From Methanomicrobiales archaeon HGW-Methanomicrobiales-2 (GTDB lineage Archaea > Halobacteriota > Methanomicrobia > Methanomicrobiales > Methanoculleaceae): 64,000 nt of DNA. Position 1 is the stretch's first letter, and each line of letters starts with the position of its first letter. The DNA lies in contig PGYL01000012.1 of the NCBI GenBank assembly GCA_002839645.1, forward strand, positions 12,706 to 76,705, read 5' to 3'. Under the pieces are notes generated by a model, which was given only the letters and a program-made list of their open reading frames with translations, made no database searches and had not been told where the DNA came from. Positions 50,143-58,164 of this stretch are shown one piece after another. The translations under genes and the position numbers were made by a program.

Positions 50143-50214
50143 GCCGAGGTGGCGGAACGGCTACGCGGTTGACTGCAGATCAACTACATCCCGGTTCGAC
50201 TCCGGGCCTCGGCT
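50143..50214 (+). tRNA. tRNA-Cys (GCA)
   Basis: Acceptor GCCGAGG/CCTCGGC, U73, anticodon arm GTTGA-CTGCAGA-TCAAC with G37, T arm CCCGG-TTCGACT-CCGGG. Confidence 0.96.
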
Positions 50215-50225
50215 TGAGGTATCCC

Positions 50226-51599
50226 ATGAAAGAACAGGTTCAGAAGACGTTCGAAGCGCTCTTTGCACTCGAGGATATCCGAGAGGTGTTCCGGGAGGCG
50301 CTCCCGACCGGTCCCGGGCCCGACGAGGAGCGGGCCATCCGCGAGGGTGTCGCCCGGGTCCGGGCAATTCTCGACGACCTGGAGGCGGGGAGAGGCTCCC
50401 CGACGGTCACGAAGATCGCCGGCACCCTCGATATCCGGAACCGGGAAGAGGCATATATCAACATCCAGCCGATCCAGGCCGCCGGCCGCCTGACTCTCGA
50501 AGCCCGGAAGGCGCTCATCGCCTACGGCGACGGCTACTCCACCTGCGACGCCTGCCGAAAGCCCTTCCGCCTCGACAAGATTACAAAGCCCCCCATCGCG
50601 GCGTTCCACGAGGATCTCGCCCGGTTCCTGAACATGGACGTGGTCCGCGTCGTTCCCGGAGCACGCCGGGGGTTCCAGGCGGTCGCCTCCACGCTTGTAG
50701 AAAAAGGCGACCCGGTCATCGTCTCATCGCTCGCCCACTACACGGAGTTCCTGGCGGTCGAAGGGGCGGGCGGCGTCGTGAAGGAGGTCCCGCTTTCGAA
50801 AGGGAACCTCGTCAGTCCCGACGCCGTCGCCGCAAAGATCGAGGACGTCGTCCGCGAGACCGGGAGGACGCCGCCGCTCGTCATGATGGACCACGTCGAC
50901 TACCAGTTCGGGAACGTCCATGACGTCGCGGGCATCGCGAAGGTCGCTCACCAGTACGACATCCCGTTCCTCCTCAACGGGGCCTATACGGTCGGGACCA
51001 TGCCCGTCGACGGTAAAGCGATCGGGGCCGATTTCGTCGTCGGCTCCGGACACAAGAGCATGGCCTCCCCCGCCCCGTCCGGGGTCCTCGCCGCCACCGC
51101 CGAGTGGGCGCCGCGGGTCTTCCGGACGACGGCGATGACCGGAGACCTCACCCACCGGAAGTTCGGGATCAAGGAGGTGGAGATGCTCGGCTGCACCCTG
51201 ATGGGGGCGAACCTCATCGCCATGATCGCCTCGTTCCCGACCGTCCGGGAGCGGACCCTCCGCTGGGACGAGGAGGTGAAGAAGTCCAACCACTTCATCG
51301 ACGGCCTCCTTGCCATCGAGGGGACGAAGGTTCTCTCCGAGTACCCGCGGAAGCACACCCTCACCAAAGTGGACACCACCGGGAGTTTCGACACCGTCGC
51401 CGCGACCCACAAGCGGCGGGGCTTCTTTCTCTCCGACGATCTCTCGGGACGCGGGATCGCCGGGGAGTTCGCCGGCGCCACCCGGACCTGGAAACTGAAC
51501 ACCTTCGGCCTCTCCTGGAAGAAGATCCGGTACCTGACGGACGCCTTCCAGGAGATTGCCGCGAAATACGATCTGAACGTCAGGAAAGAATCAGCATGA
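50226..51599 (+). CDS. pscS: Sep-tRNA:Cys-tRNA synthase (SepCysS) with an N-terminal helical extension
   Basis: [36 protein letters not shown] (PLP lysine), LGCT; GAGGT Shine-Dalgarno at 50216-20. Confidence 0.93.
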
Positions 51600-52891
51600 G
51601 CAGACACCAATACCGGCCGGGCACGCTCGCCCTCCACGCCGGGCAGTCGCCCGACCCGACGACGGGAGCCCGGGCCGTACCGATCTACCAGACGACTTCC
51701 TACGTCTTCCGCGACACGGAGCACGCAGCGAACCTCTTTAGCCTCAAAGAGCCCGGGAACATCTACACCCGGCTGATGAACCCCACCACCGACGTCTTCG
51801 AGCAGCGGATGGCCGCCATCGAGGGAGGAACCGCGGCGGTAGGGGTCGCGTCGGGGATGGCGGCGATAGCAAACGCCCTCCTTGCCGTCACCCGGCCGGG
51901 CGACGAGATCGTCGCCGCCGACAACCTCTACGGCGGCACCTACGAGCTCTTCAACTACACGTTCCCGAAACTGGGACGGGACGTGATCTTCGTCGACTCA
52001 ACCGACCCGGAGGCGTTCCGATCGGCAATAACGGAAAAGACCCGGGCGGTCTACGCCGAGTCGATCGGGAACCCGAAGCTGGACGTCCCCGACTTTGCGG
52101 CGATCGCGGCGATAGCCCACGAGGCCGGGGTGCCGTTCGTCGTCGACAACACCGCCGCGGTCGGTCTGGTCCGCCCCATCGACCACGGCGCCGATATCGT
52201 CGTCCTCTCGGCCACCAAGTTCGTCGGGGGTCACGGCACCTCGATTGGCGGGGTGATCGTCGACTCCGGCAACTTCGCCTGGGACAACGGGAAATTCCCC
52301 GGATTCACCGATCCCGATCCCTCCTACCACGGGCTCCGGTACTGGGAGGCATTCCGCGACTTCCCGGGTCTCGGGAACGTCGCCCTCGCCTACAAGGTCC
52401 GGCTCGAGGTCCTCCGGGACATGGGTGCGTGCCTCTCGCCGATGAACGCCTTCCTCCTCCTGCTGGGGCTCGAGACCCTCAGCCTCCGGATGGAGCGGCA
52501 CTCGGAGAACGCGCTGGCTGTCGCCCGGTTCCTCCGGGACCACCCGAAGGTTGCCTGGGTGAACTACCCCGGGCTCCCCGATCATCCGGCTCACGCCGTC
52601 GCCCGGAAGTACCTCTCCGGCGGGTTCGGCGCCCTGGTCGGGTTCGGGGTGAAGGGAGGGTGCGATGCAAGCAGGAAGGTGATCGAGCGGCTCCGGCTCT
52701 TCTCACATCTCGCGAACATCGGCGACGCAAAGAGCCTCGTCATCCACCCGGCGAGCACCACCCACCAGCAGCTGACGCCCGCGGAGCAGGCGGCGTGCGG
52801 GGTCACTCCCGACTTCATACGCCTCTCCGTCGGGATAGAGGACGTCAGGGACATCATCGAGGACCTCGATCAGGCTCTGCGGGATGCGTAA
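51596..52891 (+). CDS. metY: O-acetylhomoserine/O-acetylserine sulfhydrylase
   Basis: LHAGQ...[53 protein letters not shown]; ATGA overlap with pscS. Confidence 0.93.
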
Positions 52892-56243: not shown

Positions 56244-56263
56244 CAAGAGGGAGATCGATAGCG

Positions 56264-57196
56264 ATGGGACGGATATACCATGACATCACCTGGACGATCG
56301 GGAACACCCCGCTCGTCCGGCTGAATCGGGTGACGGAAGGCTCCCGGGCGACGGTCCTCGCCAAGGTGGAGTCGTTCAACCCGATGGGGAGCGTGAAAGA
56401 CCGGATAGGGGTCGCGATGATCGACGAGGCCGAACGGGCCGGCGAGATCCGGGAGGGGACGACGATCGTCGAGGCGACGAGCGGGAACACCGGGATTGCA
56501 CTTGCGTTCGTCTGCGCGGCCCGCGGCTACCCGCTCAGGCTCGTGATGCCCGAGACGATGAGCATGGAGCGGCGCAAGCTCCTCGCAGCACTTGGTGCCG
56601 AGGTGGTCCTCACGCCCGGGGCCGGGGGGATGAAGGGAGCGGTCGACCGTGCGGCCCGGATCGCCGCCGAGAGGCCGGACACCTACTTCGTGCCCCGGCA
56701 GTTCGAGAACCCGGCGAACCCCGCCGTCCACCGCCGGACGACGGCCGAGGAGATCTGGCGGGACACCGACGGGACCGTCGACGCCGTCGTCGCAGGCGTC
56801 GGGACGGGCGGGACAATCACCGGGGTTGCCGAGGTCCTCAAGGCGCGAAGACCGTCCTTTAAGGCGATCGCCGTCGAACCGGTGGAGTCCCCCGTCCTCT
56901 CCGGAGGACCGGCCGGCCCGCACCGGATCCAGGGGATCGGGGCCGGGTTCGTGCCGCAGGTGCTCCGGACCGATCTCGTCGACGAGGTATTCCAGGTCAC
57001 CTCCGCGGATGCCTTTGCGATGAGCCGCCTGCTTGCCCGGAAGGAGGGGATCCTCGCTGGCATCTCGTCGGGCGCGGCTGTCCACGCCGCCTGTGAGGTT
57101 GCCCGCCGGCCGGATTACGAGGGGAAGGTTATCGTCGTGATCCTCCCGGATACCGGCGAGCGGTATCTCTCGACGGATCTCTTCGAGGCGCAGTAG
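56264..57196 (+). CDS. cysK: Cysteine synthase A (O-acetylserine sulfhydrylase)
   Basis: [44 protein letters not shown]. Confidence 0.96.
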
Positions 57197-57210
57197 GGGG
57201 ACGGAACGCG

Positions 57211-58164
57211 GTGAACCTCAGGGAGGATATCCGGACAGTCTTTGCAAAAGACCCGGCGGCCCGGTCGACGATCGAGGTGATCTGCTGCTACCCGGGCCTC
57301 CACGCGATCTGGGCGCACCGGATCGCGCATGCCTTCTATCGCCGCCGGCTCTACTTCCCGGCCCGTCTGGTCTCTCATATCGCCCGGGCGCTGACCGGGA
57401 TCGAGATCCACCCCGGAGCGAAGATCGGCCGCCGGGTCTTCATCGACCACGGCTCAGGCGTCGTGATCGGGGAGACGGCGGAGGTTGGGGACGACGTCCT
57501 GATCTACATGGGTGTGGTGCTCGGCGGCACCGCGCTCGAGCAGACGAAACGGCACCCGACCATCGAGGATAACGTCGTCATCGGGTCGGGGGCGAGCGTT
57601 CTCGGCCCCATCACCGTCGGGCGCGGGGCAAAGATCGGCGCCGGTTCGGTCGTCGTCCACCCCGTCCCCGCCGGTGCGACGGTCGTGGGCGTTCCGGGCA
57701 GGCTTGCCGGCCCAAAGTGCCAGAAGGGCCAGGAGAAACTCGACCGTGGCGATCTCCCCGACCCGATGCTCCGGGTGGTCAGCCGCATGCTTGATAGGCA
57801 GAATCGGATCGAAGAGCGGCTCCGGGCGGTGGAGCGGTCGGGTCTGGTTGGCGATAAACGGCGGGAGGAGATCGTAATCGAGGAGAGCGTCCGGGCGGCA
57901 CTTAAAGAAGTGATCGACCCGGAGGTCGGGATCGACGTCGTCGACCTCGGTCTGATCAAGGGGATCACCGTCCAGGACTCCTCGGTGCTTGTGGAGATGG
58001 TCCTGACCACCGCCGCCTGCCCGCTCGTCGACTACCTTACTGACCGGGTCCGGCGCCGGGTGCTTGACGTGAGCGGCGTCCGGGACGTCGAGGTCCGGGT
58101 GCTCGACGAGCCCTGGGACTGGGACCGGTTCTTCGGTCAGAGGGACGTTCTCAGGGAATTCTGA
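57211..58164 (+). CDS. cysE: Serine O-acetyltransferase fused to a C-terminal SufT/DUF59 (FeS_assembly_P) domain
   Basis: KDPAARS...[32 protein letters not shown]; linker PDP; then DPE-X27-T-X3-C domain ([15 protein letters not shown]...LTTAACP). Confidence 0.92.

Follow-up and report, generated by a model that had tools for sequence, protein, structure and literature searches.

The main text of Mukai et al. (2017, mBio 8:e00561-17, PMC5424206) notes an association of tRNA-Cys with SepCysS and sulfur genes at the clade VII SepCysS loci of methanogens of the Euryarchaeota, and describes both fused and split forms of SepCysSn. Operons of related composition have been reported as well, namely tRNACys-SepCysSn-SepCysS-SepRS in 'Ca. 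Bathyarchaeota' BA2 (PMC5424206) and SepRS-SepCysS(-tRNACys) in DPANN archaea and bacteria (PMC5424206; 2022 survey, PMC8762117). Here we analyse a 64,000-nucleotide (nt) stretch of Methanomicrobiales archaeon HGW-Methanomicrobiales-2 (contig PGYL01000012.1; hereafter the window), in which a tRNA-Cys gene immediately precedes pscS, the gene for SepCysS, at the head of a run of sulfur genes. The locus is of the clade VII kind (PMC5424206), with the fused form in the window and the split form on another contig of the assembly (C61). As in the BA2 and DPANN operons, tRNA-Cys heads or joins a probable operon for enzymes acting on it, but here the SepRS gene, sepS, is unlinked (contig C35), and the operon instead holds genes for methionine, free cysteine and tRNA thiolation. 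An earlier reading of the window from its letters alone (the original prediction) had suspected that the tRNA-Cys/pscS linkage might already be on record, and the main text of Mukai et al. (PMC5424206) bears this out. That main text does not mention a spacing of 4–17 nt, a ribosome-binding sequence at the tRNA 3′ end, a shared promoter or palindrome, tRNA-Cys arrays, tRNA-led genes for CysRS, E1, ThiS-like or radical S-adenosylmethionine (SAM) proteins, or transcript evidence. Likewise, our literature search returned no account of the 4–17-nt spacing, the shared promoter, the arrays or transcript data across the junction. Although the linkage of these genes is on record, how tight and how widely conserved it is has received little description.

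Transcripts that join tRNAs to mRNAs, and mRNA ends created by tRNA excision, are known kinds of arrangement. In Escherichia coli, the thrU-tyrU-glyT-thrT-tufB operon carries promoter-proximal tRNA cistrons on a protein-coding transcript, from which nucleases release the tRNAs. The present locus resembles it in placing a tRNA gene promoter-proximal to a protein gene, but the tufB operon is bacterial, its four tRNAs are not substrates of a dedicated modifying enzyme and its spacer is longer, whereas here a single tRNA abuts the Shine-Dalgarno (SD) sequence of the enzyme that converts its attached amino acid. Within the same group of organisms, the pylTSBCD cluster of Methanosarcinaceae has a tRNA gene directly 5′ of genes for a dedicated synthetase and for amino-acid biosynthesis. 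The order of tRNA, synthetase and biosynthesis is shared, but the tRNA and enzyme families are different and the amino acid is an extra rather than a canonical one; neither a palindromic operator nor tRNA arrays of this sort are known to us at pylTSBCD. In plant mitochondria, excision of tRNA-like t-elements by RNase P and RNase Z makes the ends of neighbouring mRNAs (PMC1920247). Excision of tRNA-Cys would likewise create an mRNA end, but mitochondrial punctuation is organellar and genome-wide, whereas here it would concern one particular locus of an archaeon, along with a tRNA-Pro–nth pair of the same genome as a further example.

The genome examined is a Methanoculleus assembly of 2.78 Mb in 69 contigs (61% G+C, estimated completeness 99.5%). 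The original prediction placed a tRNA-Cys with G37 and U73 a mere 11 nt before the pscS ATG, with an SD in the gap, and named the enzyme as SepCysS; ARAGORN, Rfam and direct reading of the sequence agree on the first point, and family models and structure matches on the second. The tRNA folds as a cloverleaf with a GCA anticodon, G37 and discriminator base U73, and its CCA end is not encoded. We take G37 and U73 to be identity elements for SepRS, and the tRNA is therefore predicted to be charged as a substrate of the SepRS type. A predicted fold of the precursor, inspected for pairing of leader with trailer and for sequestration of the SD, preserves the cloverleaf and pairs the SD only in part, with a near-palindrome in the coding region.

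The product of pscS scores above the family cut-offs of both NF006810 (621.8 bits, cut-off 301) and TIGR02539 (407.4 bits, cut-off 365), and matches the SepCysS structures of M. jannaschii (3WKR/5X6B, E value 1.2e-90) and A. fulgidus (2E7I, E value 3.8e-82). Alignment with 3WKR sets CDAC over CDYC, and the SGHKSMA and EMLGCT motifs are identical; these residues include the lysine that binds pyridoxal phosphate and the three active-site cysteines of the published structures. The first ~60 residues form the extension, of which residues 2–36 are homologous to the separate SepCysSn open reading frame (ORF) on C61 (40% identity over 35 residues, E value 1e-6), and it is by this N-terminal peptide homology that we assign the product to the SepCysSN-fused, clade VII-type form.

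A survey of the assembly, of the kind to which the original prediction pointed, found one tRNA-Cys, one sepS (692.8 bits), no cysS (the best match reaching 39 bits against a cut-off of 340) and a second pscS that is split and without a tRNA. Absence of cysS extends to 29 of 31 Methanomicrobiales relatives. That the pscS product turns Sep-tRNACys into Cys-tRNACys is a prediction supported by the presence of sepS together with the absence of cysS. Because there is no CysRS, the action of SepRS and SepCysS on tRNA-Cys is the only route to Cys-tRNA, and CysE and CysK supply free cysteine that cannot be loaded onto tRNA directly. The second pscS, on C61 (region 14400–15831, 16236–18175), comprises a SepCysSn of ~60 residues and a SepCysS of 391 residues and has its own TATA box; genes for a second ThiI-like protein and for a PP-loop (LarE-like) protein are next to it on the opposite strand.

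To locate signals for transcription, we scanned the plus strand for TATA-like or AT-rich octamers and for T runs. The AT-rich, TATA-like cluster at 50079–50130, 5′ of the tRNA gene, is the only strong one on that strand between 49900 and 58300. No run of five or more T residues occurs on the plus strand from 49900 to 58600, and the spacer (50215–50225) contains no T run. Thus neither a promoter nor a terminator signal separates the tRNA gene from pscS on their common strand, as had been argued from the shortness of the gap. A scan with bacterial-type models, which returned no promoter-like site and terminator-like sites no more frequent than in shuffled sequence, was set aside as inapplicable to archaea. 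The TATA box is conserved 5′ of tRNA-Cys in relatives as TATAAATATT or TTTAAATATT. In established archaeal promoter geometry the TATA box lies ~26 nt from the start, and applying this distance here we infer a leader of ~35 nt ahead of the tRNA.

We propose that one regulated promoter, with its TATA box at 50080 and two flanking palindromes, would start transcription at about 50104–50111. The primary transcript would then consist of the ~35-nt leader, tRNA-Cys, the 11-nt spacer and eight translationally coupled genes from pscS to cysE. RNase P and tRNase Z would excise the tRNA, and the tRNase Z cut after U73 (50214) would turn the spacer into the 5′ end of the mRNA, leaving the SD at its very tip. 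In such a design a single control point would govern both the supply of the substrate tRNA and the production of SepCysS and the enzymes of sulfur assimilation. We put the probability of this reading, one promoter, a tRNA-led eight-gene transcript and an mRNA 5′ end made by tRNase Z, at roughly three in four. Co-transcription and generation of the mRNA 5′ end by tRNase Z are well supported, if unproven for this strain; the exact start, the processing sites and the presence of all eight ORFs on one transcript are predicted from the features collected in Table 1.

Table 1. Positions in the window of the tRNA-Cys/pscS unit and of its predicted control elements.
Feature	Position	Strand	Basis and remarks
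Putative archaeal promoter: purine stretch like a TFB-recognition element (BRE) and TATA box TATAAATA (50080-50087)	50074-50087	+	Sequence reading, octamer scan
Palindromic operator-like site 1 ATTCACAATTGTTAT	50087-50101	.	Between TATA box and predicted start; conserved in Methanomicrobiales loci
Predicted transcription start zone	50104-50111	+	Inferred: TATA centre + ~26 nt
Palindromic operator-like site 2 TTAACAATTGTTAA	50117-50130	.	5′ leader, 12 nt before tRNA
tRNA-Cys(GCA)	50143-50214	+	ARAGORN; Rfam RF00005, 56.1 bits with alignment
Spacer TGAGGTATCCC, 11 nt	50215-50225	+	SD GAGGT at 50216-50220; presumed tRNase Z cut after 50214
pscS: SepCysS with fused N-terminal SepCysSN helical extension, 457 residues	50226-51599	+	ATG at 50226
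metY: O-acetylhomoserine sulfhydrylase	51596-52891	+	TIGR01326, 648 bits; PF01053
metX: homoserine O-acetyltransferase with C-terminal CBS pair	52884-54362	+	NF001209, 539 bits; two PF00571
DUF1890 protein, 162 residues	54353-54841	+	PF09001, E value 3e-50
DUF1894 protein, 96 residues	54820-55110	+	PF08979, E value 3e-33
thiI: tRNA 4-thiouridine/thiamine sulfurtransferase	55107-56243	+	TIGR00342, 273 bits; PF02568, PF02926, PF22025
cysK: O-acetylserine sulfhydrylase	56240-57196	+	TIGR01139, 460.7 bits
cysE: serine O-acetyltransferase with DUF59/FeS_assembly_P fusion	57211-58164	+	TIGR01172, 242 bits

We took advantage of public RNA data from relatives, in the form of assembled unitigs rather than reads, so that 5′ ends are approximate and depth is flat within a contig. 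In a cultured relative with ~88% identity, sequenced as a pure culture (organism A), a 410-nt contig of library X40 corresponds to window positions 50194–50603 and a contig of library X42 to 50076–50639. A 151-nt contig of library X41 runs from the equivalent of ~50104–50105 to that of 50256, covering the second palindrome, the tRNA from end to end, the spacer and the first 31 nt of pscS, and its start coincides with the predicted start of transcription. A further contig of 725 nt spans the junction at the paralogous pscS2 of organism A, including the tRNA and 360 nt of pscS2. Contigs of organism A also cross every junction from pscS to cysE, those of the deep libraries running on across the convergent nadA gene. 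In metatranscriptomes, the tRNA-Cys/pscS2 locus of a sister species (L026; tRNA at 8918–8988, ATG at 9001) is crossed at its junction by an X1 contig (8958–9205); an X2 contig starts at ~8990, 2 nt past the tRNA 3′ end, an indirect hint of a 5′ end made by tRNA processing, and the upstream intergenic region has no coverage. These contigs support co-transcription of tRNA-Cys and pscS in relatives. Two data sets were discarded: junction contigs in X7, a library labelled 'METAGENOMIC RNA-Seq' that may be DNA, and metatranscriptomes at a Methanosarcina locus (L052), where unitigs break at the repeated tRNA-Cys and at the repeated 5′ end of pscS. A literature search for transcription start or isoacceptor data on tRNA-Cys/pscS in Methanosarcina returned nothing specific.

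The same data bear on the possibility that tRNA-Cys and pscS have transcripts of their own. That of the tRNA would end in or just past the spacer, that of pscS would start within the tRNA gene or at its end, and the adjacency would be only a product of genome compaction. Contigs of mature tRNA are 20- to 100-fold deeper than those across the junction, as separate expression would predict, though tRNA stability predicts this equally. Conversely, a pscS start at ~50215–50226 would need a TATA box near 50185–50195, and the sequence found there, TCAACTACATCCCGG, belongs to the anticodon-stem/variable region and is not TATA-like. The spacer without a T run, the junction-spanning contigs of relatives and the 4-nt spacers of sister species, which leave no room for separate signals, all argue in the same direction, and we regard separate expression as highly improbable.

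Several observations weigh against the single tRNA-led transcript. The RNA runs closest to the window (X1–X7 and X30) yield only fragments of ~94% identity on it, and no contig in the unambiguous RNA libraries among them crosses the junction. In organism A, the deep libraries cover almost the whole genome, and one X42 contig runs through the promoter into the upstream gene, so that DNA carry-over or read-through is a possible source of its junction contigs. In two shallow libraries the contig depth is 3–6 over metY–thiI and 15–18 over cysK-cysE-nadA, a rise that could come from an internal promoter before cysK or from the presence of nadA on the same contig. Finally, the proposition that this is the organism's sole tRNA-Cys had to be downgraded to sole in the assembly, since contig C45 ends early: its end (78517–78720) lies ~1 kb before the point at which sister Methanoculleus genomes (L026/L029/L042) have a tRNA-Cys-led E1 (UbaA/ThiF-like) gene, one or two additional tRNA-Cys genes and a tRNA-Cys-led pscS2-metY2 duplicate. 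The present strain may carry such an array and pscS2-metY2, unassembled.

The original prediction described an eight-gene sulfur unit that joins both cysteine pathways with MetX/MetY sulfhydrylation and tRNA thiolation, its genes overlapping or nearly abutting through cysE, and Pfam and NCBIfam assignments bear out the content as the junctions, which lie between −22 and +14 nt, bear out the layout. The unit comprises the tRNA and eight protein genes, hence nine cistrons, and the successive gaps from the tRNA through cysE are +11, −4, −8, −10, −22, −4, −4 and +14 nt. ThiI has the THUMP and PP-loop domains and no rhodanese domain, and the C-terminal domain of CysE is a DUF59/FeS_assembly_P (SufT/MIP18-like) domain (PF01883, residues 224–297). 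Downstream, nadA is convergent on the minus strand and overlaps the end of cysE by 14 nt.

Is this layout a single operon? It might instead be divided, with tRNA-Cys, pscS and the genes from metY to thiI on one transcript and cysK-cysE on another from an internal promoter; alternatively, transcription might read through from the upstream membrane-protein gene. The depth step at ~55700–56270 (from 3–6 to 15–18 in the two shallow libraries) is what an internal promoter would produce, although the high-depth contigs include convergent nadA, which may set their mean depth. Against an internal promoter, thiI runs 4 nt into cysK (ATGA) and lacks any AT-rich, TATA-like octamer. Comparative evidence falls on both sides: in Methanoregula, cysE-cysK forms a separate unit on the opposite strand, whereas the order through cysE is kept in six of the seven sister Methanoculleus loci that are long enough to show it. 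The read-through variant draws on the single deep-library contig that extends from the upstream gene across the promoter. Taken together, we judge a division of the unit, or read-through into it, to be unlikely.

We were interested in how far the tRNA-led arrangement extends beyond this genome, and examined 80 loci encoding close relatives of SepCysS, with counts based on the 78 that have at least 120 nt of upstream sequence. A tRNA-Cys gene on the same strand lies within 20 nt of the pscS ATG in 44 of the 78, within 100 nt in 57 and within 300 nt in 60, and the genera concerned include Methanoculleus, Methanoregula, Methanofollis, Methanosarcina and Methanomethylovorans. The arrangement is thus conserved across Methanomicrobiales and Methanosarcinales. 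The usual spacer is 10–13 nt, with the SD starting 1–2 nt past the discriminator, and 39 of 45 tightly linked copies have an SD-like motif no more than 20 nt past the tRNA. Runs of at least four T residues within 25 nt of the tRNA are found in 1 of these 45 copies as against 12 of 25 copies without a downstream ORF, so that, judged by their flanks, linked copies look suited to read-through and unlinked ones to termination.

Within Methanoculleus the tRNA and its promoter are nearly invariant, and the spacer measures 4, 11, 12 or 17 nt. At three sister loci (L018–L020) only 4 nt (CTCT or CTCC) separate U73 from the ATG, with no SD, so that translation of pscS there would essentially have to start on a leaderless mRNA, for which the tRNase Z cut would be needed. 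These 4-nt spacers are the best sequence-level support for coupling between tRNA processing and the mRNA, which they suggest. At the opposite extreme, long spacers in Methanoregula (L075:8554–8580, L079:6181, L080:7043 and 8505, L083:8898) begin with a conserved hairpin, GAGGTGTATCAACACCTC, that pairs SD-like GAGGT with ACCTC; placed directly after tRNA-Cys, it may be a processing signal or a mask of the SD.

Further along the unit, the order pscS-metY is common to both orders of methanogens, metX-DUF1890-DUF1894-thiI comes next in Methanomicrobiales, and Methanoregula and relatives share the arrangement as far as thiI. Since cysK-cysE is appended only in Methanoculleus, the union of both cysteine pathways under one putative promoter is a genus-level feature. 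At the Methanoculleus palmolei locus (L021) the order is tRNA-Cys-pscS-metX-cysK-cysE; metY and the segment DUF1890-DUF1894-thiI are missing, so that even within the genus the operon differs in content.

The adjacency itself is not a matter of chance, because only 2 of the 44 tRNA genes in the assembly run into an ORF and because the adjacency recurs in most of the 78 loci. Most of the other 43 tRNA genes have T-rich trailers, and the two that run directly into a real ORF are tRNA-Cys and tRNA-Pro(UGG). The idea that tRNA-Cys is unique in this respect was accordingly rejected. After tRNA-Pro(UGG) (C62:60834–60908), 5 nt without an SD lead to the ATG of an endonuclease III (nth-like) gene, whose product has an HhH and an iron–sulfur (Fe-S) motif; 3′ processing at this second tRNA–ORF fusion would yield a leaderless mRNA.

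The control region offers a further line of comparison. A TATA box together with the palindrome TTCACAATTGTGAA, ~10 nt before the tRNA, is present at nearly every tRNA-Cys gene in the Methanomicrobiales and Methanosarcinales loci that we retrieved. An extended 14-bp form, TT[A/C]ACAATTGT[T/G]AA, has five copies in this genome, against ~0.02 expected from a rough estimate based on base composition. The copies lie at 50087–50101, 50117–50130, 59154–59167, C45:77275–77290 (just past the end of the window) and C40:52216–52230, and all are intergenic, two of them in the present promoter and the others between nadA and the next gene, between a radical SAM gene and an NcsA/TtuA-like gene, and between iscS-iscU and a gene for a 107-residue helix-turn-helix (HTH) protein. 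The palindrome looks like the operator of a sulfur or Fe-S regulon. A search of the literature for the palindrome sequence found no match in methanogens. The 107-residue protein, of the HTH_3 family and with C-terminal cysteines, is a candidate regulator. Just past nadA and its unknown neighbour, on the minus strand at 59623–60135 and beyond, there is also a DtxR-type iron-dependent repressor (PF01325/PF02742), so that iron and sulfur control elements adjoin.

In relatives, additional tRNA-Cys copies stand before four other kinds of gene: a CysRS gene with the HIGH-type HLGH and the KMSKS motifs (gap of 12–23 nt), a ThiF/UbaA-like E1 gene, a gene for a 64-residue ThiS/SAMP-like protein ending in GG, and a gene for a 331-residue radical SAM protein. 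Not all copies look alike. In Methanoregula and relatives, a divergent tRNA(GCA) lies 10–23 nt before the CysRS gene (L051:4578, L055:4437, L057:1460, L080:2296, L093:6414) and has A37 (G37 in L080) and G73 rather than U73; the L055 copy is a good tRNA fold, with 58 bits against RF00005. A cysteine tRNA would not be expected to have G73, and the CysRS-linked tRNA could be a dedicated or a regulatory one. Several Methanosarcina loci (L033, L034, L035, L038, L044, L045, L048) have arrays of three to five tRNA-Cys genes 5′ of pscS. The upstream copies of these arrays have G37, their own TATA box and palindrome and, after the tRNA, a hairpin with a T run; in the copy next to pscS, position 37 is A and the acceptor stem differs, and a conserved ORF of ~155 residues (MKGEIVDG...) lies inside the array. 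The divergent copies, with A37 at Methanosarcina pscS and with A37 and G73 at Methanoregula cysS, could be specialized leaders rather than decoding tRNAs.

These copies raise the possibility that tRNA-Cys acts as a regulatory handle in cis. Binding of threonyl-tRNA synthetase (ThrRS) to the tRNA-like operator of thrS provides an analogy, by which SepCysS, SepRS, CysRS or RNase P and tRNase Z might, on the precursor, occlude or expose the ribosome-binding site, within a portable cassette of promoter, operator and tRNA. On this view, how far the sulfur genes are translated would be set by maturation of the tRNA or by the balance between enzyme and tRNA. Consistent with such a role are the spacing of 10–17 nt in 42 loci, and of 3–4 nt in two more, across two orders; the SD placed 1–2 nt past the discriminator; the tRNA-Cys copies before four other gene kinds; the same palindrome in the promoter of the radical SAM homologue of this genome; and the 4-nt spacers, which imply that translation needs processing. 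Against it, enzyme binding to the precursor is purely hypothetical, compaction alone gives short spacers, some relatives have spacers of 40–220 nt, and the 5-nt gap of tRNA-Pro(UGG)-nth, which has no obvious functional link, means that tight fusion need not imply feedback specific to a substrate. A regulatory role of this kind for the tRNA therefore seems doubtful. One may hypothesize more broadly that, in class II methanogens, the cassette of promoter, palindrome and tRNA-Cys is a reusable front end for sulfur-trafficking genes in a 'tRNA-punctuated' sulfur regulon, in which tRNA excision would create the mRNA 5′ end, leaderless in some species, and tRNA-Cys supply would gate translation, possibly through SepCysS, SepRS or CysRS on the precursor; this idea is tentative and improbable on balance.

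Returning to the tRNA-led transcript that we favour for this locus, its significance follows from the lack of CysRS, because of which decoding of any cysteine codon requires this tRNA and SepCysS. Placing tRNA-Cys, SepCysS and the synthesis of homocysteine, free cysteine and thiouridine behind one regulated promoter would be a simple means of adjusting sulfur assimilation to the needs of translation. The conserved promoter and palindrome offer a concrete handle on the regulation of sulfur metabolism in methanogens. If tRNase Z cleavage does create the 5′ end of the mRNA, the locus would be a clear archaeal case of tRNA processing serving as mRNA maturation.

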